Shown: positions 21,018 through 40,719, counted from the first letter of the stretch. The stretch is DNA of 64,000 nucleotides from an uncultured Candidatus Saccharibacteria bacterium (GCA_964464405.1 CAYXFX010000003.1:6410-70409), one strand, 5' to 3'. The notes: generated by a model from the sequence alone, not told the origin. Made by a program: numbers and translations.

Positions 21018-21112
21018 TATAATCTCCCTTCTTTATTTTCTACTTCAAGAATAACACATTACAGTGAAAAAATCAAGTAACTTTGAGCTTTAATTCGGGA
21101 TACAATATACAA

Positions 21113-21859
21113 ATGAAGCAAAAAGGGAGCAAAAAAGCATTGATTTTGTTGTTTTTTATAACTTTTTCTCTTTTTTACCCTTTTCTTGAAGCAAAAGCCG
21201 CGACCAAGGTTTATGAATATACCAGGGGATTCGGAGGTAAAATTACAAAAATTCAGGCCTGCTCGGTACCCCCCGGATTTGTTATTCACGTAGGACCGCC
21301 CACACCCGGGAAGTTCTTCTTAAATCCGGCGACAAGTTCAATTCATCCATACGGCGTAATTATGCCGGGAGTTTGGGTTTTAGGTAATGCGGCGCCCACT
21401 CCCATGACTTGTTCGGAGGGTAATCCCAAAGGAATCGGTGGATTCGGCGCTTTGGGAGGACTTGCCGGTTCAACCGGTTCACTGTTTTCTGCTTCGACAA
21501 GACTTAACGAATTCGACGAAATTTCAGGCATAACGATAAGCGGTCCTTTGGGAGGTTTGAGATTAGAGGGACAATTAGGCGAAACTTTGGGCGGAATTTC
21601 AAATTCTCTAGGAGGAATAAGCGACTCAATAGGTAATATAACCAGTTCTTTAGGAAATATAGGAAGCGCTTTTTCTATTGTCGGCTCATTAATGAGCGGG
21701 GATTTTGTGGGAGCAGCTTTAAGCGTTATAACTTTTTTTGACCCGACTGGACTTACATCTTTAGCAAAACTTTTTGTATCTTTTCTCGATGACCCACCAT
21801 CTTTGGGCTCTGCGTATCCGATAATACACATAGGAACAAGCCTTTATCCTGCCCGCTAG
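21113..21859 (+). CDS. Secreted Gly/Ser-rich repeat protein (hypothetical)
   Basis: Signal peptide; LGGISNSLGGISDSIGNITSSLGNIG repeats. The track start at 21083 is TTG; ATG at 21113 is preferred. Confidence 0.45.
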   Translation: MKQKGSKKALILLFFITFSLFYPFLEAKAATKVYEYTRGFGGKITKIQACSVPPGFVIHVGPPTPGKFFLNPATSSIHPYGVIMPGVWVLGNAAPTPMTCSEGNPKGIGGFGALGGLAGSTGSLFSASTRLNEFDEISGITISGPLGGLRLEGQLGETLGGISNSLGGISDSIGNITSSLGNIGSAFSIVGSLMSGDFVGAALSVITFFDPTGLTSLAKLFVSFLDDPPSLGSAYPIIHIGTSLYPAR

Positions 21860-21938
21860 CTTTAATTTTATTTAACTTTATACACAGAGCTTCGAAGCCG
21901 AGCTTTGAAGCTCTTCGTGGTATAATTAAGAAGGAAAA

Positions 21939-22976
21939 ATGGGCTACGCACCGTCAAAAAATTTCATAGCCCTTGTTTCTGCTACACTTGTCATTCTCTT
22001 TGTGGGGTTTTTCATAACGCGTGTTGTGCTTCCTGAAAAAAAAGCGAAAAAAGAACGCCTTGCGTCCGCTCTAAATGCGATTCAAAAACCCGAGGCCGGG
22101 TTTTTGGAAGCTTACGAAGATGCTAACCGCGACACAGACGGCGACGGCCTTAAGGATTGGGAAGAAATCTTGTGGAAATCCGATCCGCATAAGCCAGACA
22201 CCGACGAAGACGGCACAACAGACAAAGAAGAAACCAAAGAAAACCGAAGTCCTGTTGTTGCCGGCAAAAAAAATTCGGACGGATCTTGGAGCGACGCGGT
22301 AAAGTCAGCAGAAGTTCCGGAAAAAACTTCAACTTCAACACCCAAAACACTTACGGAACGTATTGCGCGCCAATTTGCGGTTGAATATTTGACCACCGAA
22401 GGGGTAGCCGGCGGAAACATAAATAATTTTCAAAAAGAATCAATTACCGAATCCCTAGTAGAGTCGCTAAGCAAAGACGCGCTTCTTTACAAAGACAAAT
22501 ACGCAACCAAAGATATAAAAATTTTAGATGGCGCGTCTCCCGACACAAAAAAGGAATATTTAAATAAAATCGGGGAAACACTTAAAAAAAATCTAAAGGG
22601 AACTGAGCGTTCCGAAATGGAAATTTTAAACGAAGCTATTTCCATGGGAAAATACGATAGTCTTTCAAAATTAGATGACTATATTTCAGCTTACAAAAAA
22701 AGTTTAGAATTTTTAAAAAATTTAAATTCACCTAAAGAATACGCGTATTTCCATCTTGAGCTTATGAATATTTTGGAAAACACGATAAATGCGGACAACT
22801 TTATAAAAACAACCAGCAGCGATCCCGCGCGCGGGCTTGTGGGGCTTTATATTTATTCAAATCAAATAAGCCGCCTCGCAAATTTTTATAAATCAATTGA
22901 GCGGCAAATCAGAATTGATAATTTATCATTTAAGCCGAACGATGGCGGATATTATTTTGCAAATTCCGGGTTATGA
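21939..22976 (+). CDS. Membrane-anchored protein with D-x-D-x-D calcium-binding-like repeats (hypothetical)
   Basis: N-terminal TM; DTDGDGLKDWEE...DTDEDGTTDKEE. Confidence 0.45.
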   Translation: MGYAPSKNFIALVSATLVILFVGFFITRVVLPEKKAKKERLASALNAIQKPEAGFLEAYEDANRDTDGDGLKDWEEILWKSDPHKPDTDEDGTTDKEETKENRSPVVAGKKNSDGSWSDAVKSAEVPEKTSTSTPKTLTERIARQFAVEYLTTEGVAGGNINNFQKESITESLVESLSKDALLYKDKYATKDIKILDGASPDTKKEYLNKIGETLKKNLKGTERSEMEILNEAISMGKYDSLSKLDDYISAYKKSLEFLKNLNSPKEYAYFHLELMNILENTINADNFIKTTSSDPARGLVGLYIYSNQISRLANFYKSIERQIRIDNLSFKPNDGGYYFANSGL

Positions 22977-24439
22977 AAATATTTAATCTAAAATCAATTA
23001 CAGCTTTTTTGATTGCTTTTATTTTGAGTACAAATATTTTTCTTCCGAATATTGTTTTTGCCGAAACAGAAGTTTCGCCCGACGAGCTGATGGATCCGTT
23101 TGCCGGGCAAGATCTTTCCGGAGGCGCGGGAGATTCGGGGTTAGGAAGCATTCCGGGAATCGGAGGGCTTTTAAGCGGAGCGCTTCGCACAAATCTGGTT
23201 CCTATCAGCATGCAGCAAGATATCCCGGGGACAGCGCGCGACATCGCAAATAAAATTGCGTGGGGAATTGCAAAAATGATGATACACCAATTAACCCAAC
23301 AGATAGTGCAGCTCATCCGGACTGGAGGGCAGGGCGGCGGAGCTTTGTTTGTACAAGATTGGCAAGGCTTTTTGCTTGATGCGGCGGACCAGGCAAGCGG
23401 GGTTTTTTTGCAAGAACTTAATTTAACACAACTCTGCCAGCCATTCGGGATAAAACTGCGCTTGCTTTTCGCGGATGATAGTGCGCGCCTTCCTTTACAA
23501 AGAAGGCTTTCGTGCACCGTTTCAACAGTCGCAAGAAATATTCAGGGATTTCTTGACGATTTTAATAATGGAGGGTGGGCGAGGTGGTTTGAAATCACGC
23601 AAGTTCCGCAAAATAATTTTTATGGCGCATATTTAATTGCATTGGATGACAAGTTAACCCGTGAAGCAAATGCGGTCGCAGCCGCGCGAAACGAGGCAAT
23701 TTCAGCAAATGGATTTATCGGAGTAAAAGAATGTGAACCAACAGTTGAAACAGAACCGGGAGATGCGCCCATCGGAGAAGTTTGTAAAATTGTAAGTCCG
23801 GGAAAATATTTGGAAAATCGTTTAGCTGAAGCGACCACCGATGATATTCGTCAACTAGGACTCGCTGATTCATTTAATGAAATTTTAATCGCTGCTTTTC
23901 AATCCTTAATAAACAACCTCTTCTTCTCGCAAGGCGGGCTTGCAAGCTCAAATATCAGATCTTCCACCATCAGAAATCAGCTGCAAGAAGACTTGTTTAC
24001 CGTAAAACAAAGTGGGCTACAGCTTTCGGGAATTGATTCTGCGATAGCCGCAACAAAAGCAATTATAAACAAAAAACAAAACTCGCTCGCGAAAATCAAT
24101 GAAGCGCTAGACGCACTAGGAAATTTAAAAACATGCCTACAAGACGGCGGAAAAACATTGGCTTCGGCAAATACAGATATCAATTCCGCCACAACCGTTA
24201 AAACATCGCTTGAAAACGACTTGCTTGACCAAAATATTCTTTTAATAAATTTAGAAGACGACAAATTTGATATGACAAACGCGTCCACTGTCGCAACCCT
24301 TAACGACGCGCTTTCAAAAGCGTATGAAAATGTATCCGAGGTCGGATCATACGCAATAGCAGCCGCAGAAAACAGCCAAATTACAACCATTCGCACAAAA
24401 GCGGTTTCGGATTTAACATCATGTGAAAATTCAAACTAA
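22973..24439 (+). CDS. Secreted hypothetical protein (488 aa)
   Basis: Signal peptide MKIFNLKSITAFLIAFILSTNIFLPNIVFA; translationally coupled (ATGA overlap) to its neighbours. Confidence 0.45.
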   Translation: MKIFNLKSITAFLIAFILSTNIFLPNIVFAETEVSPDELMDPFAGQDLSGGAGDSGLGSIPGIGGLLSGALRTNLVPISMQQDIPGTARDIANKIAWGIAKMMIHQLTQQIVQLIRTGGQGGGALFVQDWQGFLLDAADQASGVFLQELNLTQLCQPFGIKLRLLFADDSARLPLQRRLSCTVSTVARNIQGFLDDFNNGGWARWFEITQVPQNNFYGAYLIALDDKLTREANAVAAARNEAISANGFIGVKECEPTVETEPGDAPIGEVCKIVSPGKYLENRLAEATTDDIRQLGLADSFNEILIAAFQSLINNLFFSQGGLASSNIRSSTIRNQLQEDLFTVKQSGLQLSGIDSAIAATKAIINKKQNSLAKINEALDALGNLKTCLQDGGKTLASANTDINSATTVKTSLENDLLDQNILLINLEDDKFDMTNASTVATLNDALSKAYENVSEVGSYAIAAAENSQITTIRTKAVSDLTSCENSN

Positions 24440-27400
24440 AATGAATTTCTTCAAAAATAAAAATTTAAAAATTATTTTATTAAGCGCTTTGGTTTTGGCG
24501 CTCTTAATTAATTTTGGCTTTAACGTTCCAAACGCGGAAGCGGCCGGCACAAAATTTGGGAGCCAGCTGAAAACAAACCTGCAATCCGGCTTTAAATCTC
24601 TGGGAAGCGACATTGCAAGCGCGTCTGTTTATATTGCGGTAATTTATGTTGTTTTATTTGTTATACTCCAAGTGCTTTTATGGTTTTTTGACGCAGCTTC
24701 TCAATTAATAAATGCCGCCTTCGCGTTTGCAACTCGTCCGGAATGGTACAACAACGAAGCGGTTACGGCGGCTTGGACGATAATTCGGAATTTTGCCAAT
24801 ATCTGGTTTATTTTTCTTTTGCTTTTCGTAGCAATTGCAACCATTTTGCGTGTCCAGCGCTACCAGGCCAAAGAAATGGTGCTATGGATAATTATAATGG
24901 CAATTTTAATTAATTTCAGTTTGCCTATTACTAAAATTATTATAGACGTTTCAAATATTTTAACTTTTCAATTTGTTAAAACTATGGGGGTTTTGATAAC
25001 GAACGAAAAAACAAATGGAAGGGTTTATGACATTGCAGGAACAATTGAAAATAGTGTGGGAGTCAGAAGATTAATCAATGATACCGAATCTGATTATGCA
25101 GTTCCGGGGTTGGAACAAGAAAAAGTGCAATCACCCGAAAAAACGCAACAAAATACTCAGGGTTTTGTACCAGTCAATCAAGGAGAAGCCAATACTTTTT
25201 CTATTTTACCGCACGCAAAAGCGGTTATTGATCCGATTTCTATCGGCATCGGCGTGCTTGTATGGATCGGTCTCAATGTTGTCGCCCCAGCTGCCCTCGG
25301 ATGGGTCGCGTATCAAATCGGTTTTGCCGGAGTGATTCTCAATCCGATAATTAACTTATTGATCAGCAACATTCTCATCGGATTTGCGGTTTATGTAATA
25401 ATTTCTTTGGCAATATTTTTATTAATAAGGACTGTAGCGCTTATGTTTTTGGTGGCCACTTCGCCTGCCGGATTTTTACTTTCAGCTTTTCCGGGTTTTT
25501 CAACTTATTCCAGCAAATGGTGGAGTGCTTTATTAAATCAAGCATTCTTCGCGCCCGCGGTAGCGTTTCTTTTGTGGCTTAGTCTTTCCTTAACCAGCCA
25601 AATACAAATGAATTTAAATCAGCAGGGCCTGACAAATTCCATAATTGATCTTCGAAATGGAAGAATTATATTTTTTGTTTTAACAATAATTTTGCTCTAT
25701 ATGTCGCTGCGCGTTGCAAGAGATATGGGGGCTTACGGAGCAGAAACAGCAATAGGTTTGGGGAAGAAAATTAAAGATTTTGCACTCGGCGGAGTAAAAG
25801 GATTCGCAAAAAGCACGTTTGTCGCGCCAATTGGAAAATCTTTGGAAAAAACCGGCGTTGCCGATCAGCTTGGGCGAATTCCTGTTGTTGGGCCAGTTTT
25901 AGGACGGCAAGCAAATAAAGGAGTTGATTGGTTAAAAACGCGCGGTGCAGCGGATAAAATCGCGCAGGAAGAAGCCAATCTTGGAATGAAACTGCCGGAA
26001 TCTCAAAGAGCGGGATATTTTGGGCGCCTTAATCTGGCCGGGAAAGAAGCATTGCTTCGCAAAATGAGTCCGGACGAGCGCGCCAGATTTATGGAAAATT
26101 TGGAAAAAACTAACCCGAGACAAAAGAAAATAGCGGAAGGAATTATGGGTTCTGCGTTGTTTAGACCGGGAGAACGCGCGCAGTTTGATATTGCGACATA
26201 TAAGCGCATGACCTCACAGCAACAATACGAAAACTTTGATAAATTAAGCGAAGAAGCGCAAAGCGATTTCCTGCACGGAATGGATGCTTCAAAACAAGCT
26301 GAATTTAAAGAAAAATTAAACGCGGACGGCAAAAGAAAACTAAATGATCTTATTGCCTCTCCAAGGTTTTCTCAAAAAGAAAAACAGGATTTCAAAATTG
26401 CAGAAATTATGCAACAAACGGAAGAAGAAAAGCACATCAAATTTGCTTCGGAGCTTAATGACGCAGACAAAGAGACGATGCTTCGCAAAATGTCAGACGA
26501 TCAAAAGACAAAATTCCTCGCGGGTTACAGAAAAACTCCGCCTGCGCAACTTTCTCCACAACAACTCGCGAATTGGAATTCAGCAGATGCAACAGCCCAT
26601 AACATAATTAGCACTAAATTCACTGATTCTGAAAAAAGAACATTCGAGGAAGCTGAGGACAAGCAGTGGATTAAAGATAATTCGAGCAACTTTTCTGCTA
26701 ACTTCATTAACCTTACAAACCCCGTAAAAGAACGCATTTTCAAAACAGCTTCGGACTATCAAAAGGCAGAGCTTGCATTTAAGTTGAGGGACTCCGGAAA
26801 CGAAAACGCAATTAGAGATCTGTCAAACAAACTAACTCCGGAAGAAAAAGACAAATTCTACAAAGAAAACGCAAATTATGTAGCCCGCCAAAAAGTTGCG
26901 GACATCGAAAGAATTGCGCCCAAACTCGAAAACGAAGAACTAGATTATTTTGTTCGCAGCGCTGACATTTTCAAAGTTTCCGAACTGCTAAACACGACAC
27001 AAAATAACATTGTTCTAGGGAAAATAGGAACAAGCATACGCAGACAGGGCTCGGGCCAAAAACTTGCGGGCTCCGTCCGACCAAATATTTATGTCGAGGA
27101 GATCAAAGGAATTGCGCGGCTCGATCCAACTGGAAATATTTCTGATAACTATAAAACAGAGCTTAAAAAACATTACGCAACTTCTGATCCAAAAGTTTTA
27201 CGAAACCTGCTTACTCCGGAGATAATTAAACAGCCGGAAATTTTTGATGATCTTTTAATTGCTGGTTCTCTTAAAAATTTTGCTGATATAACCACGGATT
27301 CTTTGCGCGCCGCGGCAGTAAAAGAAAAAATTGACGAACAAATCCATAACGCACATGCTGCAAATCATCTGCAACAAACCATCCAAAAAATAAATACTGA

Positions 27401-27683
27401 TCCACAACTATCAAGAGAGTATAATAATTTAATAAACAACTATTTAGCCACCGCTGGAGGCATTCCCGGTGCACAGGCGCTTGCACAAACCACAGCAATT
27501 AACGAGATGTTGAACACAAATACGCGCGCTCGCGCTGAAGCTTTAGCTGAAATTCTGGAAAGTAAGACAAATACACAAACAGCACAACAAATCAGAGACC
27601 AGCTTAGCCAGCCGGGCGCGCCGAACCGGCCGTTTCTAGAAAGATTATTAAAAGGTGAGCCTCCAAAAGGCAAATTAAAATAA
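24423..27683 (+). CDS. TrbL/VirB6-like polytopic membrane protein with a 600-aa repetitive hydrophilic C-terminal extension
   Basis: Signal peptide, then 6 or more TM helices in the first 450 aa in a VirB6-like arrangement; C-terminus has repeated LRKMSxDxxxxF-type units. Confidence 0.5.
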   Translation: MKIQTKMNFFKNKNLKIILLSALVLALLINFGFNVPNAEAAGTKFGSQLKTNLQSGFKSLGSDIASASVYIAVIYVVLFVILQVLLWFFDAASQLINAAFAFATRPEWYNNEAVTAAWTIIRNFANIWFIFLLLFVAIATILRVQRYQAKEMVLWIIIMAILINFSLPITKIIIDVSNILTFQFVKTMGVLITNEKTNGRVYDIAGTIENSVGVRRLINDTESDYAVPGLEQEKVQSPEKTQQNTQGFVPVNQGEANTFSILPHAKAVIDPISIGIGVLVWIGLNVVAPAALGWVAYQIGFAGVILNPIINLLISNILIGFAVYVIISLAIFLLIRTVALMFLVATSPAGFLLSAFPGFSTYSSKWWSALLNQAFFAPAVAFLLWLSLSLTSQIQMNLNQQGLTNSIIDLRNGRIIFFVLTIILLYMSLRVARDMGAYGAETAIGLGKKIKDFALGGVKGFAKSTFVAPIGKSLEKTGVADQLGRIPVVGPVLGRQANKGVDWLKTRGAADKIAQEEANLGMKLPESQRAGYFGRLNLAGKEALLRKMSPDERARFMENLEKTNPRQKKIAEGIMGSALFRPGERAQFDIATYKRMTSQQQYENFDKLSEEAQSDFLHGMDASKQAEFKEKLNADGKRKLNDLIASPRFSQKEKQDFKIAEIMQQTEEEKHIKFASELNDADKETMLRKMSDDQKTKFLAGYRKTPPAQLSPQQLANWNSADATAHNIISTKFTDSEKRTFEEAEDKQWIKDNSSNFSANFINLTNPVKERIFKTASDYQKAELAFKLRDSGNENAIRDLSNKLTPEEKDKFYKENANYVARQKVADIERIAPKLENEELDYFVRSADIFKVSELLNTTQNNIVLGKIGTSIRRQGSGQKLAGSVRPNIYVEEIKGIARLDPTGNISDNYKTELKKHYATSDPKVLRNLLTPEIIKQPEIFDDLLIAGSLKNFADITTDSLRAAAVKEKIDEQIHNAHAANHLQQTIQKINTDPQLSREYNNLINNYLATAGGIPGAQALAQTTAINEMLNTNTRARAEALAEILESKTNTQTAQQIRDQLSQPGAPNRPFLERLLKGEPPKGKLK

Positions 27684-27685
27684 AT

Positions 27686-28639
27686 ATGGACGACCAAAAA
27701 CAAAAAGACATATTAGAAACTTACGCGAATTTGCCAGCTGATTTGCAAAACGCACTTTTCGCGCCGCAAACTACGTCCGCAATACGAGAAATTGGAAAAA
27801 AGCACGAACTTACTTTAGATAAAGTCGGAGTTTTGGGAGATGAAACCGGGGCTGTAATGATGGGGCTTGCTCCGCTTAACGAATTTATTAAAAATCTTTC
27901 CATAAAACTCGAGGTGGACCGCACGAAAGCGCGTTCGATTGCAGAAGATATAAACGCGCAGATTTTTAAACCTGTTAGAGAATCATTAAAACAAGTTCAC
28001 CACGTTGTTTCTACAACAGAACCGACTCAAGGCGCCTCTAAGGAAATACCCCCTCCTACTCCCCCTTATAAAGTGGGAGATAATCAGTTTTCCCCTCCTT
28101 TACAAGGAGGGGCCGGGGAGGTAATAACGACCAAACCAGAGGAAAAACTTGAAAGAGAAGTCGTTCCAAAAAGCGAAACCAAAAAAATTCCCCCGCTTCC
28201 CAAAGAAATGATTGACGGGCTTAAATCTAAAATTCCCTCATTTATTGGGGGCAGTTCAGACTCTCCGAAAACCGTAACTTTTGAGCAATCAACAGTTGGT
28301 GGAGAAATTAAAAAACCCGAGCCTCCTGAAAATTTGCCTGTAGAAATTGTTTCCCCGCCGGCCTCCTTGAAGTCCGACTTCAAATCCCAAAAGAAGTCGG
28401 ACTTCATCCCAGCCGGCGAACCAACAATTTTTGCCAAAAAACTGCCGGAGGAGGAACCTTTGGTAATAAAGCCCATGCCCAACCGATTCGGCATGAGCGC
28501 CGCAGAGCCTTCCCAAACTGCTTCGCTGCAATCAGAGTTAGAAAAAGAATTAGGCGGCTCCATCCGTAGAGGAACAGCATCTCCGGACATTCCGCGCCCA
28601 CCCAAAAAAAACGATCCGTATAGAGAACCGATCGAGTAA
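27686..28639 (+). CDS. Pro-rich hypothetical protein carrying in-frame palindromic repeat insertions
   Basis: Conserved-looking N-terminal domain, then a low-complexity Pro-rich region that includes the GC-rich elements (28047-28121) and the KSDF palindromes (28369-28405). Confidence 0.5.
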   Translation: MDDQKQKDILETYANLPADLQNALFAPQTTSAIREIGKKHELTLDKVGVLGDETGAVMMGLAPLNEFIKNLSIKLEVDRTKARSIAEDINAQIFKPVRESLKQVHHVVSTTEPTQGASKEIPPPTPPYKVGDNQFSPPLQGGAGEVITTKPEEKLEREVVPKSETKKIPPLPKEMIDGLKSKIPSFIGGSSDSPKTVTFEQSTVGGEIKKPEPPENLPVEIVSPPASLKSDFKSQKKSDFIPAGEPTIFAKKLPEEEPLVIKPMPNRFGMSAAEPSQTASLQSELEKELGGSIRRGTASPDIPRPPKKNDPYREPIE

Positions 28640-28653
28640 ATTAGCATCGCATT

Positions 28654-29097
28654 ATGCAATACCAAGTACCACAATTTATAGAAGTAGAAGATAAAATTTT
28701 CGGGCCGTTAACCGGAAAACAATTTTTCTATATCTTAGGCGGAGGAGCTATTATATTCATTATGTACATTTACCTGCAGCTTTGGGTTGTTATTCTTTTT
28801 GGCATACCTGTCGCTGGCCTTACTGCCTCTTTAGCGTTTTTAAAAATCAACGGAATGCCTTTTATAAAAGTTTTAAATAATGCAGTCGGATACGCAGTTT
28901 CGTCCCGGCTTTACCTTTGGAAAAAAAGTACAAAACTATCGGCGTCCCTGAAATTTGAAACTAAATCTGGCGAGAAGTCGGACTTTTTGCCAGCCAACAT
29001 CCCAACAACCATTCCCGAAGCTGCTCCAAAACTTACAGAAAACAAATTACAAGATTTAGCATGGTCGCTCGACATTAAGCAGCAAATTAAACGTTAG
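28654..29097 (+). CDS. PrgI-family / VirB3-like small membrane protein
   Basis: MQYQVPQFIEVEDKIFGPLTGKQFFYILGG + 2 TM, typical of PrgI-like proteins that precede VirB4 in Gram-positive-type T4SS. Confidence 0.5.
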   Translation: MQYQVPQFIEVEDKIFGPLTGKQFFYILGGGAIIFIMYIYLQLWVVILFGIPVAGLTASLAFLKINGMPFIKVLNNAVGYAVSSRLYLWKKSTKLSASLKFETKSGEKSDFLPANIPTTIPEAAPKLTENKLQDLAWSLDIKQQIKR

Positions 29098-29110
29098 CCA
29101 TTTAACCATT

Positions 29111-29761
29111 ATGGTCCAAGCGCAACCCACACAAAATATATTAAAAATAGAAGAAATAAGAGACGGGGTCTTAATTTTAAAAGACGGATCTTACCGCGCG
29201 ATTTTAATGGCATCGTCCTTGAATTTCGCGTTAAAAAGTACGGAAGAACAGAATGCAATTATTTACCAGTATCAAAATTTTTTAAACTCACTCGACTTTT
29301 CCGTTCAATTCTTTATTGAATCAAGAAATTTAAATATTGAGCCCTATATCGAAACCTTAAAAGAAACGGAATCAAAACAGACAAACGACCTTTTAAAAAT
29401 TCAAATTACTGAATACATAGATTTCGTCCGCACTTTCGTACGCGCTGCGAATATTGTATCAAAAAGTTTCTTTGTTGTGGTTCCTTTTTCTCCGCCCTTA
29501 TTTAATACGCCGCAGGAGGGATTAAAAAATGTTTTCGGCGGATTTTTCGGAAAAAATAAAAATGTAGATGCAAATAAATTAGATCAGGAAAAGTTTGAAG
29601 AATATAAAACGCAGCTTTGGCAAAGGGTGGACAACGTAATTCAAGGGCTTGTTAGAATGGGAGTAAAAACCGTTCCATTAAATACGGAGGAAATAATAGA
29701 ATTGTTCTACGGATTATATAATCCTGGAGAGCTAGAAAAAGGAAAGCCACCTATGGCGTAA
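29111..29761 (+). CDS. VirB4-like ATPase, N-terminal fragment (216 aa); terminated by in-frame TAA-TGA
   Basis: ILKIEEIRDGVLILKDGSYRAILMASSLNFALKSTEEQNAIIYQYQNFLNSLDF resembles the extreme N-terminal region of Gram-positive-type VirB4 (TrsE/PrgJ-like). Same reading frame as the downstream ORF. Confidence 0.45.
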   Translation: MVQAQPTQNILKIEEIRDGVLILKDGSYRAILMASSLNFALKSTEEQNAIIYQYQNFLNSLDFSVQFFIESRNLNIEPYIETLKETESKQTNDLLKIQITEYIDFVRTFVRAANIVSKSFFVVVPFSPPLFNTPQEGLKNVFGGFFGKNKNVDANKLDQEKFEEYKTQLWQRVDNVIQGLVRMGVKTVPLNTEEIIELFYGLYNPGELEKGKPPMA

Positions 29762-29803
29762 TGAGTCACTAAACATAAAACATTAAATACAAAGATAAAA
29801 AAT

Positions 29804-31618
29804 ATGCTTGGATTTGGAAAAAAAGAAAAAGAACCAGAGTTAACGCCAGTTTTCCCAGAGGAAATTTACCGCGCGGGCGTGCTAGATTTAAAAGACGTTA
29901 TTGCGCCTTCGGCTCTTGAGATTACTTCGAATTTCGTGCGTTTAGGAGAAAAACTCGCGCGCACTATGTTTGTTTTTGCTTTTCCAAGATTTCTTTCATC
30001 TAACTGGTTTGCACCGATAATAAACTTAGACAAAGTTATGGACGTATCTATGTATATACATCCCGTAGACACATCCATGGTTTTAAAACGCCTCGAAAGG
30101 AAAGTTGCGGAAGTGCAATCGCAAATTACTGTGCGCCAAGATAAAGGCCTTGTAAGAGATCCTGTGCTAGACACCGCTTATCAAGATTTGGAATCTTTGA
30201 GAGATCGGCTTCAGCAGGCACAGGAAAAACTTTTCAGCTTTGGTCTTTATATAACTGTTTACGGAAACACGAACGAGGAACTCGATAAATTGGAGAAAGA
30301 AATCAAATCAATGCTTGAATCGCGCCTTGTTTACGTAAAACCGGCGCTCTTCCAGCAAAAAGAGGGGATAGATTCTGTTTTTCCGATGCTTGATGACGTC
30401 ATAAAAATTAATAGTTACTTAAATTCATCTCCCGTATCCAGCGTTTTTCCGTTCGTATCTTTCGACCTTACTTCAAATAAGGGAATACTTTATGGAATTA
30501 ACGCGCATAATAATTCTTTGGTTTTGTTTGATCGTTTTAGTTTGGAAAATTATAATTCCGTGATTTTTGCCAAAGCCGGCGCGGGAAAATCCTATGCAAC
30601 AAAGCTGGAAATTATGAGGTCTTTGATGTTTGATACGGAAGTAATAGTAATTGATCCTGAGCGAGAATACGAATATCTAGCAGAAGCAGTTGGCGGAAGA
30701 TATTTTAATATTTCGCTTTCCTCAAAGCACCACATAAATCCATTCGATCTACCTATGCCTAGAGAAGACGAATCTCCGTCAGATGTTTTGCGGTCGCATA
30801 TCATCAACCTTGTTGGCCTCTTTAGAATCATGCTCGGAGGAATTTCTCCAGAAGAAGATGCAATTATTGATCGCGCAATAACCGAAACATATGCTTCGCG
30901 TGACATAACTCCGGATAGCGATTTCTCTAAAGCCGTTCCTCCGATTCTTTCAGATTTAGAACTTGTGCTTGCAAATATGGAGGGAGGAGAATCTCTCGCG
31001 CAAAGACTTAGGAAATTTACGCAAGGAACATGGGCTGGATTTATAAACCAGCCGACAAATGTCGATATCAACCAAAAATTTATTGTATTTTCGGTACGAG
31101 ATATGGAAGATGATCTTCGGCCGGTTGCAATGTACATTATTATACATTTCATATGGAGCGCAATCCGCGCAGAAATTAAAAAAAGGATTCTTGTTGTGGA
31201 CGAGGCGTGGTGGATTATGAAAAATGAAGACGGAGCATCTTTTCTTTTCGGTATCGCAAAACGAGCAAGAAAATATTATTTAGGCCTTACAACAATTACG
31301 CAGGATGTTTCGGACTTTTTAAATTCGCCTTACGGTAAACCGCTAATCACGAACTCCTCAATACAGATGCTTTTGCGCCAAGCTCCGGCAAGTATTGATA
31401 TTTTAAAAGAAACTTTTAATTTAACTGACGAAGAAAAATTTTTACTTTTAGAATCAGATGTGGGAGAGGGAATATTCTTTGCCGGCTTAAAACATGTGGC
31501 AATAAAAATTTTAGCTTCCTACACAGAAGATCAAATAATTACTTCTGATCCGGCGCAGCTTTTGGCAATTAAAAAAGCAAAAGCTCAATTTTTAGCAGAA
31601 CCAAAAAACGTAATGTAA
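29804..31618 (+). CDS. VirB4/TrbE/CagE-family type IV secretion ATPase (604-aa segment)
   Basis: IAPSALEITSNFVRLGEKLARTMFVFAFPR (VirB4 DUF87-like region), Walker A AKAGAGKSYATKLE, Walker B ILVVDEAWW. Confidence 0.8.
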   Translation: MLGFGKKEKEPELTPVFPEEIYRAGVLDLKDVIAPSALEITSNFVRLGEKLARTMFVFAFPRFLSSNWFAPIINLDKVMDVSMYIHPVDTSMVLKRLERKVAEVQSQITVRQDKGLVRDPVLDTAYQDLESLRDRLQQAQEKLFSFGLYITVYGNTNEELDKLEKEIKSMLESRLVYVKPALFQQKEGIDSVFPMLDDVIKINSYLNSSPVSSVFPFVSFDLTSNKGILYGINAHNNSLVLFDRFSLENYNSVIFAKAGAGKSYATKLEIMRSLMFDTEVIVIDPEREYEYLAEAVGGRYFNISLSSKHHINPFDLPMPREDESPSDVLRSHIINLVGLFRIMLGGISPEEDAIIDRAITETYASRDITPDSDFSKAVPPILSDLELVLANMEGGESLAQRLRKFTQGTWAGFINQPTNVDINQKFIVFSVRDMEDDLRPVAMYIIIHFIWSAIRAEIKKRILVVDEAWWIMKNEDGASFLFGIAKRARKYYLGLTTITQDVSDFLNSPYGKPLITNSSIQMLLRQAPASIDILKETFNLTDEEKFLLLESDVGEGIFFAGLKHVAIKILASYTEDQIITSDPAQLLAIKKAKAQFLAEPKNVM

Positions 31619-31660
31619 CCACCTCTTCCACCCCTTTACGAAAAGGGGTTTGGGAGAGGC
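31619..31660. repeat. Diverged copy of the GC-rich palindromic element immediately after the VirB4 stop
   Basis: ccacctcttccacccctttacgaaaaggggtttgggagagg would read PPLPPLYEKGFGRG in the VirB4 frame. Confidence 0.4.
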
Positions 31661-31696
31661 AATAACAATGATAAAATTAGATTAAGATAAATAATA

Positions 31697-32677
31697 ATGA
31701 ACGGTTTAAGTAAAATATTAATAGTCAGTTCGTTACTGCTAATCGCATTCTATGCAGAAGCTCTTACAATTTCAACCGATAATTTGGTGTTGTCTCCTTC
31801 TCCCGCATATCCCAAAGCGAATTCTGAATTTATTATAAAAGCAAAAACATTTTCTTTTGACGCAACTCGCGCGCGTTTTACGTGGTATCTTGATGGTAAA
31901 AAAATCGACGAAGGAACAGGGTTAACCGAACAAACATTTGTGGCAAGAAAGCTTGGATCAAAAATGAATATCCGCGCGGCAGTCCTATCCGCAGATGGGG
32001 AATATTTTGAGGACAGCATCACGATTTCGGTTTCCGATATAGATTTAATTATTTCTCCGCTTACATATACTCCTCCTTTTTATAGAGGCGCGCCCCTAGC
32101 TTCTCCCGGAAGTGTGGTTGAAATTATCGCGATCCCGCATTTATATTCTGGCTCTGCAAGAATTAATCCCCAAAGTTTGATTTACGAATGGTCGTTAAAT
32201 AATAAACCAGTTCAAAATCAATCCGGGGGAGGTAAAAACATACTTTCACTTAAATTAGCGGACGTTTCAAATAGTGAACAAGTTGTTACCTTAAAAGCGA
32301 GCACTGTTTCCGGAAACACGTCTGTTGAAAGAAATGTGCGCGTTAGAACATACCAGCCAGAAATACTTTTTTACGAAACAAATTCCGTAACCGGCAAAAA
32401 AGTAAAAGCTTCATCTTTTTTTAATTTTACTCCAGCAAGCTCTTTTTCAATATTAGCCGAGCCATTTTATATGGCTTTGGAATCTCTTTTAAAATCAAAA
32501 TTCACATGGTTTGTAAACGGAAATATTTTTTCGGAAAACGCAAAAAACCCGTTGGTGTTAGATTTAACTGCTCCACCGGATTCGGAATCACAAACAAATT
32601 TTTCTTTAAAAATCGAAGATGTAGGCACTCTTTTTCAAAGAGTAAGCGGAATTTTAACGGTTAGAATAACAAAATGA
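31697..32677 (+). CDS. Secreted hypothetical protein (326 aa), beta-rich
   Basis: Signal peptide; no recognised domain. Confidence 0.45.
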   Translation: MNGLSKILIVSSLLLIAFYAEALTISTDNLVLSPSPAYPKANSEFIIKAKTFSFDATRARFTWYLDGKKIDEGTGLTEQTFVARKLGSKMNIRAAVLSADGEYFEDSITISVSDIDLIISPLTYTPPFYRGAPLASPGSVVEIIAIPHLYSGSARINPQSLIYEWSLNNKPVQNQSGGGKNILSLKLADVSNSEQVVTLKASTVSGNTSVERNVRVRTYQPEILFYETNSVTGKKVKASSFFNFTPASSFSILAEPFYMALESLLKSKFTWFVNGNIFSENAKNPLVLDLTAPPDSESQTNFSLKIEDVGTLFQRVSGILTVRITK

Positions 32678-33492
32678 ACATTTTAAAAAATTTTAAAAAA
32701 AACACAAGGGGAAGAGGTGGGGGGAAGTCGCTCCAATATGTTTTCGGAGTTCTCGTTATTTTTATGCTTCTTATAACCATATCTAGCCCCACACTCGCCG
32801 CTGAAGATAATGCGACTTACAAACTAATACAGCCGCTTCCGGGAACTCCGGGAAGCGGAGGACCAATAACGGATGTGGGGGGAGATATGCCTTTTGCGCA
32901 ATATATGCAGCGTATCATTCCTTTTATTCTGGCATTTGCAGCGCTTTTAGCTTTGGTGCAAATTGTGGTAGGTGGTTTCGAATATGGGCTTTCCGCAATA
33001 CCGGGCATAAAAGTTGAAGGGAAAGATAGGATAACTAGCGCGCTTTGGGGACTTGGGCTTGCGTTAATTTCTTGGCTGATACTCCGCACAATCAATCCGG
33101 ATTTGGTAAATTTGAAATTTTTTGTACCACGCCCAGTTGGTTTATCGTCACAATCGTCCCCGCCCACACAATCTACAAAAACAAACGATTTACAGCAAAG
33201 TGGCGCCGTAGAAGTAACAAATCCGAACAGCCGTGGTCCGATTTGCCCACCAGGATCAGATAAAACTTGTGATAGAAACCAGAAGTGCGCACTTAATATG
33301 AATGGTACGAATTATGTGTGTGTAAATACAAATGCAGCACAGTCTGCCGACTCAAAAACTGCATTTTTTTGTTCAGCAAACACAAATATTTGTGCATCTT
33401 TTGGAGGAACAATCGCCCCCGGCCTCGCAAATTGTGGAAAATGTAACTCTGGTTATATTTGCTGTGAAAGAAAAGAGTCTATACCAAAATAA
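32674..33492 (+). CDS. Membrane protein (3 TM) with C-terminal Cys-rich extracellular domain; candidate T4SS pilin-like component
   Basis: TM helices then 14 Cys in the last 90 aa (CPPGSDKTCDRNQKCALN...CGKCNSGYICCERK). The N-terminus (NTRGRGGGKS) resembles a partial GC-rich element. Confidence 0.4.
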   Translation: MNILKNFKKNTRGRGGGKSLQYVFGVLVIFMLLITISSPTLAAEDNATYKLIQPLPGTPGSGGPITDVGGDMPFAQYMQRIIPFILAFAALLALVQIVVGGFEYGLSAIPGIKVEGKDRITSALWGLGLALISWLILRTINPDLVNLKFFVPRPVGLSSQSSPPTQSTKTNDLQQSGAVEVTNPNSRGPICPPGSDKTCDRNQKCALNMNGTNYVCVNTNAAQSADSKTAFFCSANTNICASFGGTIAPGLANCGKCNSGYICCERKESIPK

Positions 33493-33495
33493 AAC

Positions 33496-34725
33496 ATGCA
33501 AAATTTATTAACAAAAAAGAATTTAATAATCGCAGTTGTATCAATTTTAATTATTGTTGGTATTATCATTTTCTTTGCCAGAAAAAATGGTGATAACGAA
33601 AATTCAAATAGTGGAGGATTTTTTGGACTCTTTCCAGCAAGCGAAGAGCCGTCTGTAACCGCACCGTCCGAAACACCCGCCTCGTCGGCGGGCGAGTCGG
33701 ATGTTTCCGCATCCGGAGTTTCCCAAACCCAATCCACATCGACCCCTCCGATCGGAACAATGTTTAGAATTACTGACAATGCTGTTTCTTCACTGGTCGG
33801 GACAAAATCCGGAAACATAAGATATCACAAAAATACACCTGAAAATATCGGGCATTTGTTTGAAAGAAGCGCCGAAGGAAAATCGGAAGAAAAACGTCTT
33901 TCAAATTTCACCATTCCGCAGATTACGAAAGTCGTCTGGTCGCCAGACGCAACGCGCGCTTTGATATTTTATAATTTGGACGGAGAAATAAGAAAAATTT
34001 TGATTGATTACAGATCAACATCAACCCCCAAAACCAATTTCCTTCCGGATGGAATTTTGGACGCCGCATTTTCTCCTGATTCAAAATCTATTGCTTATAT
34101 AAATAGCGAAAATGGTGTTTTTATTGCGACTTCAGATTTTAAATCTCCCAAGAAAATAACGAATAGCGAGGTTTCTAACCCGGAAATCAGCTGGCCTTCA
34201 CCAAATTTTTTATCTTTGAAAACAAAATCTTCGTACGCTTCGCGCGGATATTTATACAAAATGGATATTCGCACAGAAACTCTCGAAAAAATTGCGGAAG
34301 GGTTGGGATTAGATGCCGTTTGGTCCGGTGACGGTTTGGGAGTTTTATATTCGACAGTAAATAGCGCGGGAGAAATGCAAAATTTAATCTACTTAAATAC
34401 AAAAACCGGCGAGAAAAAAGAAATTTTAATTAAGACAGTGGCGGAAAAATGTGCCTTTTTAAATTCGATCAAAACTGTAGCTTACTGCGGCGTCCCCAAG
34501 CTGGATTCCAACGTACTTTCTCAAAAATATCCTGATTCTTGGTGGCAAGGCAGAACTTCTTTTATAGACGATTTTTGGTTATTTGACGTGGCGACAAATC
34601 AATTAGCAAGCTTTATTGCGACTTCATTTGATGTTATTAATCCTAAGCTGATGAGCGACGACTCGTATCTAATTTTTCAGGATAAAATTTCCGGATCATT
34701 ATGGAGTTTGAAACTTAAAATATAA
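33496..34725 (+). CDS. Membrane-anchored TolB-like beta-propeller protein
   Basis: N-terminal TM; repeated WSPD/FSPD PD40-like motifs (VVWSPDATRALIFYN, AAFSPDSKSIAYINS). Confidence 0.5.
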   Translation: MQNLLTKKNLIIAVVSILIIVGIIIFFARKNGDNENSNSGGFFGLFPASEEPSVTAPSETPASSAGESDVSASGVSQTQSTSTPPIGTMFRITDNAVSSLVGTKSGNIRYHKNTPENIGHLFERSAEGKSEEKRLSNFTIPQITKVVWSPDATRALIFYNLDGEIRKILIDYRSTSTPKTNFLPDGILDAAFSPDSKSIAYINSENGVFIATSDFKSPKKITNSEVSNPEISWPSPNFLSLKTKSSYASRGYLYKMDIRTETLEKIAEGLGLDAVWSGDGLGVLYSTVNSAGEMQNLIYLNTKTGEKKEILIKTVAEKCAFLNSIKTVAYCGVPKLDSNVLSQKYPDSWWQGRTSFIDDFWLFDVATNQLASFIATSFDVINPKLMSDDSYLIFQDKISGSLWSLKLKI

Positions 34726-34751
34726 ACACGATAATATTAGTATCGCATATT

Positions 34752-35525
34752 ATGTTTGACGAACTTAAAAAAATTGGATTATCAGAAAACGAGGCGCGTG
34801 TTTATTGCGCACTTCTTGAGTTAGGATCAGCAACTGCGCAAGAAGTTGCGAAAAAAGCCGATGTTAAACGCGCTACGACTTATGTTCAATTGGATTCTCT
34901 TATGAAAATAGGCTTGGTAACATCTTTTGAAAAAACCCCCGAAAGAAAAAATGGAGCAGGTAAGACATACTTCCGCGCGGAAGATCCATCATATTTAGAA
35001 AAAATTGTCGAGCGCGAAAAGAAAACAGCAGAAGACCGCGAAAAGGTTTTGAGAGAAATACTTCCGGCGCTAGAAAAAGTGTTTTTATCTTCTGGCGAGC
35101 GCCCTCGCGTAAGATTTTTTGAAGGAGTGGAAGGCCTCCGCACAATGCAGGATGAGTTTTTGAAGTCAAAATCGAAAGAAGCAGTTGGCTTTTCTTCGGC
35201 TGATGACATTTTAAGAATTTTTCCTTCGCATCCTTCCGAATATTCTCCGAGGCGGGTAAAAAGCAGGATACATTCTAAAGTGATCTATACAAGCTCTAAA
35301 GGAAAAATTCTTAAAGAAGTAGACCAAGAAATGATGCGCGAGGCTCGTTTCGTGCCGGAAGCTAAATTTCCTTTTACATGCGATGTTGTCATTTATGATA
35401 ATAAAGTCGCAATTTCTGCTTTAAGTAAAAAACCAATGGGCGTAATAGTTGAAAGTGAAGAAATAACTGAATCATTCCGTTCAATGTTTGCGCTTGCTTG
35501 GGAAGCTGCTGAAAAATATCAATAA
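34752..35525 (+). CDS. TrmB-family HTH transcriptional regulator
   Basis: MFDELKKIGLSENEARVYCALLELGSATAQEVAKKADVKRATTYVQLDSLMKIGLV wHTH plus a TrmB C-terminal domain. Confidence 0.65.
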   Translation: MFDELKKIGLSENEARVYCALLELGSATAQEVAKKADVKRATTYVQLDSLMKIGLVTSFEKTPERKNGAGKTYFRAEDPSYLEKIVEREKKTAEDREKVLREILPALEKVFLSSGERPRVRFFEGVEGLRTMQDEFLKSKSKEAVGFSSADDILRIFPSHPSEYSPRRVKSRIHSKVIYTSSKGKILKEVDQEMMREARFVPEAKFPFTCDVVIYDNKVAISALSKKPMGVIVESEEITESFRSMFALAWEAAEKYQ

Positions 35526-35526
35526 A

Positions 35527-35703
35527 AAAGCCGGGGGCGTTCGACGGCCCCCGTAAGGAGAAAAAAATAAAAATTTTTTTCTTTCTTTTTTTATTTTTTC
35601 ACATTAATTCCCGCCATAATATGGCGGAAAAAAACACATCAACCTCCCAGGTTTAGAACAACATCCGACCACCTCCTTTCTGATAATCCGCACCTCATAT
35701 CCC
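35527..35703 (-). ncRNA. Candidate small RNA (about 175 nt) with its own consensus promoter and an intrinsic terminator
   Basis: Promoter P3 on the minus strand (tgtcaa 35731-35736 / attata 35709-35714 in plus coordinates). Internal hairpin ccgccauauuauggcgg. Terminator cgggggccgucgaacgcccccg followed by UUUUUU (35553-35525). No ORF. Confidence 0.35.
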
Positions 35704-35864
35704 ATCTAATTATACTCCTTTTATATGTTTTGTCAAATTATTTGGGCAGAATTGAATTACATGCTTAATTACGAACTGCCGCGCTTCAACAACATTTCAT
35801 AAAGAAAAAAACGGCTTAAAATAAAGCGCTTTTGTGAACTTTTACACAAAAGAGCCATAAACGC

Positions 35865-35892
35865 TTGACAAACTTCTACAAAGGAGTATAAT
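35865..35892 (+). promoter_or_regulatory. Consensus promoter P2 (TTGACAAAC..AAAGGAGTATAAT), divergent from P3
   Basis: TTGACA-N16-TATAAT with the same extended motif as P1 and P3. Confidence 0.5.
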
Positions 35893-35903
35893 GCTATTTA
35901 GTT

Positions 35904-36590
35904 AAGTTGAAATAACGACTTAACCGAAAGGGGTGGTATGGAATATGGGCAAAAACTAAAATAATAGCCCGAACCACAACCACTTCAAGGTTTCGCCCTT
36001 TAGGCGGACAAGTTTGATAAAAAAGTCATGGGTGGTTCCTCTCATCCCGCCGAAAGGCAGGCAAGCTAGAGAGGAGACTAGGGGATAATGTGACCCCTCG
36101 CCTCCTCTTTAAAGAGGAACAAGATATGCGAGATATTCTCGCAGCGCTCAAGGGCGCTAGGTTAATCGCTAAAACCTACGCCGCGGAGCAAAGGATAGCC
36201 CACTATCTTTTGCCGAACGGTCAGGTTGCGGAGGTTACCCGGCGGGTTAGGCCCAAAGAGCGCAAAAATATCCTGGTAGCCCGTCCCAGGTTGCGCTAAA
36301 TAGCGCGTAAAAATGAAGGCTTGCGGGTTTGTGTGTTCCTGCATAGGTGAGCCAGAAATCATCTAAAAATTAGAACACTCCTCGGGGCGGCGGTTAGCCC
36401 TGATAGGAAGTCAACGCACTTCCGACTTCCATCAAAATTCATTTTAATGCTAAAAATTAAAACGGATTTTAATGGGAGTAGGTGAGCCTGAGTGCTTTGC
36501 ACAAGCGGAAGCTAAGAGTTGTCTGCAAGGTGATTAACTCCGGGCTTACGTAATCGTCCACCCACCGCTCTCTTAGCCCTTTTCAAAATA
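35904..36590 (+). ncRNA. GC-rich, densely structured non-coding region; candidate stable RNA(s), possibly including RNase P RNA (P4-like strands AGCCCG at 36283-36288 and ACUCCGGGCUUA at 36540-36551)
   Basis: GC content far above flanks. Chain of hairpins including a GAAA tetraloop (gccGAAAggc). 3' motif aACUCCGGGCUUA resembles the RNase P CR-V ACAGAANCCGGCUUA; AUAGGUGAGCCAGAAAUC resembles AUAGGGCAGG..GCCAGGUAAC. rnpA is 2 kb away. ORFs in the track here look spurious. Confidence 0.3.
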
Positions 36591-36611
36591 AAAAAAATTT
36601 AAGGAGGAAAA

Positions 36612-36848
36612 ATGTTAAATCAGAAGCTTAGTTTGGTGTTGGCAGGTTTGTTGTCAATTTGGTTTCTTTGTTTGGGGCTTGCGATCCTCACCCGCCAGCA
36701 CAGTTGGTTTCTTCGTTTTTCTCGCCGCCAGGCAGCCAGACCATTTCGCTGGATCTGGCGCCACTGGCATACGCAGATTACCTGGGCGCTCATCGGTGCA
36801 GGCGTCCTCCTCTATTATCTCGTTTCCACCAACCGCATTGCTCCTTGA
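36612..36848 (+). CDS. Small two-TM membrane protein (78 aa) with strong SD (AAGGAGG) and a downstream terminator; GC-rich
   Basis: AAGGAGG 7 nt upstream of ATG; hydrophobic-RW rich-hydrophobic architecture; intrinsic terminator at 36950-36983. Confidence 0.35.
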   Translation: MLNQKLSLVLAGLLSIWFLCLGLAILTRQHSWFLRFSRRQAARPFRWIWRHWHTQITWALIGAGVLLYYLVSTNRIAP

Positions 36849-36949
36849 AGCAATGCCCCTACCAAAGTTTTGTATGCAATCAGTGTTCTATAAGTACGCT
36901 CATATTAATAAAAAATTTTGGTAGGATTAAAAAAGGTTATGACCGCAAC

Positions 36950-36983
36950 CGCGCCAAGCAACAGCTTCGGCGCGATATTTTTT
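36950..36983 (+). terminator. Rho-independent terminator (cgcgccaagc-aaca-gcttcggcgcg + TATTTTTT)
   Basis: 10-bp GC-rich stem with a tetraloop, then a T-run. Confidence 0.5.
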
Positions 36984-37092
36984 AAATAAATCGAGATGTT
37001 GATTTTTCACAAAAAACAAGTTAAGCTCTTGTAGGTAAAAAAGAGAAAAGGAGAATAAGACGTTTAAAAAACTAAATAATCAGCTCGAAAAA

Positions 37093-37407
37093 GTGGGTAT
37101 GATTCTAAATCATATTTTTGATGATATTTGCGGTGTAGAGCATAAAGAACAGGTCGGCCAAAAAGAAAACTTCTATCAATATGTGTCTTTTAGTATTATT
37201 TTTTTGTATTCATCGATATGCATAGCCTCAACAATAGTTTTGTTCTGTATTCCGATTTTTAGGTTAAAGACGAATTCCTCAATACAAAATTTTTACTTCG
37301 ACAACATGTACTGGATAATCCCATTGACGATGCCGACCGGATGGATTATCTCAAAACAACTTAACGCAAAACTTTGGGCTTTTATAAAAACAAAATACAA
37401 ATCCTAA
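37093..37407 (+). CDS. Hypothetical membrane protein (104 aa)
   Basis: ORF followed by terminator aatctcgcc-aaa-ggcgagatt + ATTTTTT (37405-37432). Confidence 0.35.
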   Translation: MGMILNHIFDDICGVEHKEQVGQKENFYQYVSFSIIFLYSSICIASTIVLFCIPIFRLKTNSSIQNFYFDNMYWIIPLTMPTGWIISKQLNAKLWAFIKTKYKS

Positions 37408-37450
37408 TCTCGCCAAAGGCGAGATTATTTTTAAAAAAAATACTTTATTT

Positions 37451-40575: not shown

Positions 40576-40719
40576 TTATCCACTGTATAATCACAATATA
40601 ATAAATAAAAGATATTAAAATTTTCATTTAAAAATAAATAAAAATTTTAATATCCACATATTAACAAAATTAGTAATAATAATTTTTTATTCAAATATAA
40701 ATTAAATTAATAAACAAAA
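40576..40719. other. Candidate oriC: very AT-rich dnaA-dnaN spacer with DnaA boxes
   Basis: TTATCCACT at 40577-40585 and ATATCCACA at 40652-40660 (consensus TTATCCACA); DUE-like A/T tracts. Confidence 0.45.

Follow-up and report, generated by a model that had tools for sequence, protein, structure and literature searches.

Type IV secretion systems (T4SSs) of the ultrasmall Patescibacteria are a recognised T4SS type (2025 review, PMC12857230), with Quinonero-Coronel et al. 2025 (PMC12102498) describing a monophyletic clade of Patescibacteria VirB4 proteins that is related to the MPF-FATA class. According to the same study, genes for TrsD, PrgI/VirB3, VirB6, and VirB2-like pilins lie near virB4, TrsD and VirB4 form the commonest association, relaxases are very few, genes for type IV coupling proteins (T4CPs) are usually distant from virB4, and the neighbours in Paceibacteria include dnaA, dnaN, ksgA, rnpA, and rpmH. 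Wang et al. 2023 (PMC10633639) found T4SS and pilin genes to be essential for the epibiotic growth of a Saccharibacterium, in which comEC was dispensable, with the essential T4SS locus of Southlakia epibionticum spanning SEML1_0006-0019. Essentiality has been established in the one species tested. In PMC11665869 the function of Patescibacteria T4SSs is called completely unknown, and effector delivery or uptake is put forward. Here, we describe a locus of this kind in a stretch of 64,000 nucleotides (64 kb; hereafter the window) from an uncultured Candidatus Saccharibacteria bacterium (GCA_964464405.1, CAYXFX010000003.1:6410-70409).

The locus is very likely a chromosomal T4SS of the Patescibacteria clade, related to the MPF-FATA systems of monoderms and made up of a ten-gene unit, g2 to g11 (21939-34725), that lies between ksgA and yidC/dnaA. 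By analogy with described systems, the encoded machine most likely serves host-cell contact or exchange and not conjugation. It is a typical member of the published system and no new kind of secretion machine. The original prediction, made from the sequence of the window, had proposed a chromosomal, non-conjugative T4SS such as those of episymbiotic members of the Candidate Phyla Radiation, and this proposal is upheld by signals for PrgI, VirB6, and a pilin, by the fixation of the block beside dnaA, and by the lack of a relaxase or T4CP in the 64 kb. Its description of the components as unusual was overstated, a split VirB4 and a pilin being standard for the clade.

Gene content of the cluster

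The cluster consists of the following genes, all of which lie on the same strand:

g1: 21083-21859, + strand, secreted Gly/Ser-rich protein, 258 amino acids (aa) from a TTG codon, with a likely ATG start 10 codons in
g2: 21939-22976, + strand, bitopic membrane protein with a predicted TSP3 repeat; opens the conserved block
g3: 22973-24439, + strand, conserved secreted or anchored protein of 488 aa
g4: 24423-27683, + strand, putative extended VirB6/TrbL-like polytopic membrane protein
g5: 27686-28639, + strand, Pro-rich protein with a C-terminal DPYRE(P)I peptide
g6: 28654-29097, + strand, small membrane protein of the PrgI/VirB3 family
g7: 29111-29761, + strand, TrsD-like protein, equivalent of the VirB4 N-terminal domain
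g8: 29804-31618, + strand, VirB4 ATPase, central and C-terminal domains
g9: 31697-32677, + strand, N-terminal helix anchor and three tandem immunoglobulin (Ig)-like domains
g10: 32674-33492, + strand, putative VirB2-like T4SS pilin with a Cys-rich tail
g11: 33496-34725, + strand, transmembrane (TM)-anchored TolB-like beta-propeller; closes the conserved block
g12: 34752-35525, + strand, TrmB-family transcription regulator (Pfam TrmB, 2.2e-17)

Fourteen genes had been predicted for positions 21083-35525, where we count 12 co-directional open reading frames (ORFs), the spacers being too short for additional genes. NCBI locus tags from exact protein matches to g3 (HYS99_00590) and g9 (HYS99_00560) imply an equal gene count between the two and place the window in a Candidatus Giovannonibacteria (Paceibacteria) genome. 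The tight, co-directional packing that had been reported is evident, with ATGA overlaps coupling g2 to g3 and g9 to g10, but this form of coupling is not general: the remaining junctions consist of a 17-nucleotide (nt) overlap or gaps of 2-42 nt, except for two longer gaps of 79 nt 5′ of g2 and 78 nt 5′ of g9, both of which contain hairpins. The spacer between g1 and g2 additionally holds a TGGTATAAT box.

Gene neighbourhoods were compared across 80 related loci from Patescibacteria (numbered here with the prefix L), the majority of which are labelled as Parcubacteria or Paceibacteria lineages. The conserved unit is taken to be g2 to g11 because g1 and g12 are co-located with it solely in the closest relative, L001, which provides the only full-length match to g1 (96% coverage; a second match, in L054, covers 23%) and is the only related locus with g12 in the same position. 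Judged from this comparison, g1 and g12 adjoin the T4SS block and lie outside the conserved unit; the regulator that had been thought to close the cluster is a TrmB-family protein as predicted, but stands beyond the block. g1 has a single N-terminal hydrophobic segment and a composition of 15% Gly and 12% Ser, and g1, g3, and g5 found no match in Pfam or NCBIfam scans of the window proteins.

Secretion components and the pilin

The identity of the locus is anchored by g8, which matches the NCBIfam model of the CD1110-type VirB4 (conju_CD1110) at 1.1e-111 and 374 bits (cut-off 325), covering model positions 185-733 of 752. Pfam matches to the TraG P-loop, AAA_10, and DUF87 families accompany this match, and the translation carries both a Walker A (GAGKS) and a Walker B (VVDE) motif. 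The best 80 of 544 confirmed relatives, from Patescibacteria genomes, are 70-86% identical to g8, and family match and identity together suggest that g8 belongs with the MPF-FATA-related Patescibacteria VirB4 clade. The preceding gene, g7, covers positions 2-110 of the CD1110-type model (1.9e-9, NCBIfam) and matches the TrsD/TraD model NF041427 at 4.8e-7, under its cut-off, such that g7 and g8 jointly amount to a complete VirB4 with a predicted TrsD-like gene beside virB4. In the window the two ORFs share a reading frame; a TAA TGA double stop intervenes, followed by 12 codons before the ATG of g8. The same separation of the TrsD-like and VirB4 ORFs holds in 78 of 78 related loci, with different frames in 53 of them, which points to a conserved two-gene design and not to disruption; a pseudogene or broken-gene reading of the split is ruled out by the same count. 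The split VirB4 of the original prediction thus stands as an ATPase encoded by two ORFs, but as the ordinary arrangement and not an unusual one.

Immediately 5′ of g7, in 74 of the 80 loci, lies g6, which was correctly predicted to be PrgI/VirB3-like and matches Pfam PrgI (PF12666) with an E-value of 5.4e-10 and 40.1 bits, above the cut-off of 27, placing a probable PrgI/VirB3 homologue near virB4. The assignment of g4 as VirB6/TrbL-like, also proposed originally, finds only indirect support. Hydropathy indicates a signal-like segment and about 7 TM helices at aa 17-432, followed by a hydrophilic extension of ~640 aa rich in Ala, Lys, Leu, and Glu. The window protein has no match to Pfam TrbL at E<=1, with 13 of 53 orthologs matching this family (best 8.6e-8), and a profile of the membrane domain retrieves a single PDB entry at E<=10, namely TrwI, the VirB6 of R388 (E=0.0067). 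These signals suggest a VirB6/TrbL homologue near virB4. As every g4 ortholog bears a C-terminal extension, of 142-714 aa, g4 can be described as an 'extended VirB6'. The extension includes an MgtE_N-like stretch (aa 593-635, Pfam) and had been described as built from LRKMSxDxxxxF repeats; this motif occurs only twice, at aa 545 and 687, self-BLAST of g4 revealed no repeats, and a tandem-repeat search likewise gave no support, from which we conclude that the C-terminus is not built from this repeat. A looser helical motif is present 5 times, compared with 0.74 expected from shuffled sequences.

g10 is assigned through its orthologs as a likely VirB2-like pilin, with 41 of 47 matching Pfam T4SS_pilin (PF18895) and 3 matching TrbC/VirB2; the window protein itself aligns to PF18895 at aa 84-139 with E=0.042, below the cut-off. 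This places a probable VirB2-like pilin (PF18895/PF04956) near virB4, encoded by the one pilin gene of the window. A PDB profile search with the pilin was uninformative. g10 had been thought to be a three-TM protein ending in a 14-Cys domain; its layout is that of a signal peptide, the two-helix core of a VirB2-like pilin ending in LILRTINPDLV, and a 130-aa C-terminal tail in which we count 10 Cys.

The pilin core of the orthologs likewise terminates in a conserved LILxTINPxLV motif, beyond which their tails range from 7 to 346 aa and from 0 to 12 Cys, with similarity detected in 14 pairs among 38 tails. The tail of g10 matches none of the compared tails, even those from genomes with a VirB4 86% identical to g8, and when 1.84 billion representative proteins were searched exhaustively, the only matches were the source protein and one other, also a pilin, with two to three copies of the same CPPG...C...C...YVC module. 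The tail is therefore nearly an orphan and of a hypervariable class. A word-indexed search with the Cys-rich tail (window 33100-33489) gave zero matches, the source protein included; such negatives are unreliable for short, low-complexity queries, as the recovery of the source protein and one relative by the exhaustive search makes plain.

Enzyme-like tails were observed in single g10 orthologs, carrying NlpC/P60, CHAP, or Amidase_5 domains, together with one He_PIG match (alignment A1). In the pilin ortholog of L004 (L004:9628-10980), Cys-rich modules are followed by a domain with a HEMAH zinc-protease motif. Enzyme-like pilin tails of this sort could explain reports of 'VirB1 homologues' close to virB4 in Paceibacteria.

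The combined signals bear on whether the cluster could be a surface-protein locus unrelated to T4SSs, with VirB4 as its sole T4SS gene, an outcome that the original prediction had tied to a failure to detect VirB3 or VirB6. Five of the ten conserved genes lack a T4SS family match, as such a locus would predict. This is outweighed by a PrgI protein above its cut-off, a TrsD-like VirB4 N-terminal domain, and VirB6 and VirB2-like pilin signals in the orthologs, with the PrgI, ortholog PF18895, ortholog TrbL, and TrwI profile matches refuting the surface-protein reading, to which we assign next to no probability.

Chromosomal setting and the direction of transport

In the window, uvrD and ksgA lie upstream of the cluster and jag, yidC, dnaA (39214-40575), and dnaN downstream. 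The order uvrD-ksgA-g2...g11, on one strand, recurs in related Patescibacteria loci from dozens of genomes; downstream of g11, 47 loci have yidC, 42 have dnaA, and 39 have dnaN. The synteny comparison suggested by the original prediction thus reveals a ten-gene block kept in the same order beside dnaA in many species. All ten block genes are intact, and the G+C content of the cluster (0.38-0.42) equals that of its flanks.

No coupling protein (VirD4/TcpA) or relaxase was found among the ORFs of at least 300 aa in the 64-kb window, in agreement with the original prediction. An XerC/D-like recombinase, the sole integrase-family gene of the window, is encoded at 5503-6414, 15 kb from the cluster. 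The absence of a relaxase and coupling protein, together with a site near dnaA, dnaN, and ksgA, points to a non-conjugative system. The combination of relaxase, T4CP, and integrase with flanking repeats that marks a conjugative MPF-FATA system or an integrative conjugative element (ICE) is not present in the window, with no integrase gene beside the cluster, where flanking repeats were not searched for.

A decayed or domesticated ICE, now missing its relaxase, coupling protein, and integrase, would nonetheless explain why VirB4, TrsD, and PrgI are closest to the conjugation proteins of monoderm elements, and the phylogeny in PMC12102498 suggests an ancient transfer from monoderms. Such a remnant is hard to reconcile with a ksgA-yidC/dnaA site that is constant in dozens of species, with the high VirB4 identity among the best 80 of 544 relatives, and with ten intact genes of the same G+C content as their surroundings. 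The ICE-remnant reading is rejected on G+C content, fixed gene order, and the yidC/dnaA context, leaving it a very slight chance; any ICE origin predates the radiation of the class, and the cluster is consequently not a recent remnant.

A different question is whether the machine works inward, taking up DNA, nucleic acid, or nucleotides in the manner of the ComB T4SS of H. pylori or the archaeal Ced system, and so feeds a cell unable to make nucleotides. This reading is a variant of the best explanation and not a different identity. It accords with the missing relaxase and T4CP, uptake has been proposed for the T4SS of Saccharibacteria (PMC11665869), and g8 weakly resembles CedB (6.3e-12) and CedD, the Ced ATPases. 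These matches do not reach family level, with CedB scoring 44.9 bits against a cut-off of 700 and CedD 20.1 against 600, and the best family of g8 is the conjugative CD1110 type. No ComB- or Ced-specific partner was seen, and the remaining cluster proteins are unmatched to ComB or Ced in Pfam and NCBIfam, although models of ComB-specific subunits are absent from the libraries scanned. The sequence gives no direction of transport. We regard uptake as unlikely, with a non-conjugative T4SS for host-cell contact or exchange remaining the preferred reading.

Neither Rfam nor tRNA scans gave a match in the window, and a promoter and terminator scan came near background, with 46 promoter-like sites compared with 30.6 expected. 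Between the TrmB gene and jag, a stretch of 1.9 kb (35526-37450) has no convincing ORF, tRNA, or Rfam match and contains two perfect sigma-70 consensus promoters, at 35736 (- strand) and 35865 (+ strand). In related loci jag/yidC lies within about 0.4-1.5 kb of g11, and since this spacing is shorter than in the window, the stretch and g12 look like an insertion. The 2-kb bin at 40001-42000, which comprises the end of dnaA, the dnaA-dnaN spacer, and dnaN, has a G+C content of 0.28, compatible with an AT-rich replication origin element.

Further from the cluster, a PilB-type type IV pilus assembly ATPase (T2SSE, 3.4e-116) is encoded at 48786-50459 on the - strand, beside RuvB (47534-48556). Although the genome is reduced, it carries signalling genes at 10736-11659, 15853-16767, and 58577-60664, for a GGDEF diguanylate cyclase, a HAMP-domain protein, and a Cache-PAS histidine kinase; several ABC substrate-binding proteins are encoded on their flanks.

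Accessory proteins, proposed mechanism, and relation to known systems

Half of the ten-gene block encodes conserved proteins that are uncharacterised. The first, g2, has a TM helix at aa 9-27, a C-terminal domain of ~200 aa, and an acidic TSP3 repeat predicted to bind calcium, matching Pfam TSP3_bac at 2.7e-6 and 27.6 bits (cut-off 25), with the calcium-binding repeats of Bap and of lanmodulin as the sole PDB matches to the ortholog profile. g2 was detected in 33 of the 80 loci, its order and strand being constant in those inspected. g3, detected in 45 loci, has a conserved core at approximately aa 100-330 with invariant Cys, Trp, and Gly positions, and a C-terminal helical bundle. Its 24 homologues are mostly unnamed metagenome proteins, the four named ones being three Candidatus Giovannonibacteria hypotheticals and one unassigned hypothetical, and one homologue has Pfam Ig-like domains where the others have none. 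The original prediction had proposed structure prediction for this 488-aa protein, for which AlphaFold2 (AF2) yielded a poor model from the 24 sequences (predicted local distance difference test (pLDDT) of 58), confident at aa 340-488 alone and failing in the conserved core. No meaningful PDB match to g3 was obtained by sequence or fold, the Foldseek matches of the poor model being coiled-coil noise.

The Pro-rich protein of the original prediction is confirmed in g5, which contains 12% Pro and no TM segment, and consists of a conserved N-terminal domain of ~100 aa, a variable Pro-rich linker, and a C-terminal DPYRE(P)I peptide (window 28613-28636) in which D310, Y312, and E314 are invariant (alignment A7). 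Six-frame translations of the 80 related loci contain DPYRE 61 times, 41 of them within called g5 ORFs. The remaining 20 without exception lie on the + strand, nearly all a few codons before a stop, and in the three loci used for cross-checking (L020, L021, and L078) they stand just 5′ of prgI. g5 has no Pfam or PDB match, and its terminal peptide looks like a docking motif. g9, detected in 72 loci, was modelled by AF2 from 94 sequences with a pLDDT of 93 and a predicted TM-score (pTM) of 0.81, revealing an N-terminal helix and three Ig-like beta-sandwich domains. Foldseek comparison with the PDB returned generic Ig arrays only (NCAM, SGBP-B, SiiE, SbsB, and the Ig domains of PrgB; TM 0.2-0.3), and none of its 97 homologues has a functional name, the few named by source being hypotheticals of the Candidate Phyla Radiation/Patescibacteria.

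g11, correctly predicted to be a TolB-like beta-propeller, has a TM helix at aa 10-28 and was detected in 53 loci, where it is followed by jag/yidC/dnaA. Its ortholog profile matches 12 TolB structures (best E=2.6e-9), with weak PD40 or DPPIV_N matches in a few orthologs. The match is confined to the propeller blades (profile positions 186-312) of this TM-anchored protein; in contrast to TolB of the Tol-Pal system, g11 leaves the N-terminal TolA-binding domain unmatched, and no tol or pal genes are present, suggesting that g11 is TolB-like in fold only.

No VirB8-like (PrgL/TraM) or VirB1-like family or PDB match was found among g2, g3, and g5, the model of g3 being poor. A LysM and M23 peptidase gene lies 3.3 kb upstream of the cluster (16801-17799, - strand), and five related loci (L028, L037, L049, L051, and L063) have a homologue on the same strand, close to their upstream end. 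The peptidase is a candidate to stand in for VirB1 in wall remodelling.

By analogy with R388, VirB4 together with TrsD would dock on PrgI and VirB6 in the cytoplasmic membrane, and ATP hydrolysis would pull the pilin from the membrane into a short surface fibre or conduit. The C-terminal tail of the pilin, located after the second helix, should for that reason face outward, where a species-variable sequence would suit a module for contact or host specificity. The bitopic envelope proteins g2 (predicted calcium-binding), g3, g9 (three Ig domains), and g11 (TolB-like) probably form a wall-spanning scaffold that replaces VirB8 and VirB1, whilst the cytoplasmic g5, with its DPYRE peptide, and the VirB6 tail may offer docking sites that substitute for a coupling protein. 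The whole of this mechanism is drawn by analogy. A bolder version, which we put forward tentatively and consider rather doubtful, would hold that in the ten-gene machine of Paceibacteria VirB8, VirB1, and the coupling protein are replaced by the lineage-specific g2, g3, g5, g9, and g11, and that the single pilin displays interchangeable tail modules on the fibre surface as determinants of host specificity or wall breaching. As examples of such modules it would cite the orphan 10-Cys knot of g10, the HExxH protease-like domain of L004, and the NlpC/P60, CHAP, and amidase domains of other orthologs.

Several points weigh against the preferred reading. The VirB6-like and pilin proteins of the window fall under the Pfam cut-offs, and as a result both assignments rest on orthologs. 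No VirB8 or VirB1 analogue has been demonstrated, with the g3 model poor and the g2 and g5 matches uninformative. A T4CP may be encoded elsewhere in the genome, as most Patescibacteria T4CP homologues are far from virB4 in the survey of PMC12102498, and the bulky C-terminal tail might prevent the pilin from polymerising.

What is modestly new is the fixed ten-gene block itself, the variable and partly enzyme-bearing pilin tails, the DPYRE protein, the three-Ig and TolB-like accessories, the TSP3 protein g2, and the 488-aa g3. The five accessory proteins, the variable pilin tails, and DPYRE were not found in the passages of PMC12102498 consulted. In a block that Paceibacteria rigidly retain next to the replication origin, only the pilin tail changes freely, making it a reasonable place to look for determinants of host specificity.

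Compared with known systems, the locus most closely resembles the Patescibacteria-clade T4SSs, sharing VirB4 with adjacent TrsD, PrgI/VirB3, VirB6, and a PF18895 pilin, the lack of a relaxase or nearby T4CP, and the ksgA, rnpA, dnaA, and dnaN neighbourhood given for Paceibacteria in PMC12102498. It differs in that the block contains no hydrolase gene, and in having a single pilin gene where the T4SSs of Saccharimonadia have divergent pilin arrays. The MPF-FATA systems (TrsC-TrsD-TrsE of pGO1/pSK41, PrgH-PrgI-PrgJ of pCF10, and CD1110 of C. difficile CTn2) are similar in that CD1110 is the best VirB4 family, a PrgI family member is present, and an outer-membrane core is absent, with pGO1 also having a separate TrsD-like gene ahead of VirB4. 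In contrast to these systems, no relaxase, coupling protein, VirB8-like protein (PrgL), or VirB1-like hydrolase was recognised in the cluster, which instead has a VirB2-like pilin, absent from the monoderm systems, and is chromosomal, vertically inherited, and situated beside the origin.

The polytopic VirB6-like core of g4 with its large hydrophilic C-terminal domain recalls RvhB6, the extended VirB6 of Rickettsiales (PMC12857230), although the extensions share no sequence similarity, and here the extension spans 142-714 aa across species with one copy per locus. The Trw system of R388 provides, in TrwI/VirB6 (PDB 7o3v), the only solved structure matched by the membrane-domain profile of g4. 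R388 Trw is a diderm, conjugative system with VirB7/9/10, VirB8, VirB5, VirB11, and VirD4, none of which was found in the window, but serves as the mechanistic template for the inner-membrane complex of VirB3, VirB4, and VirB6 and for pilin extraction.

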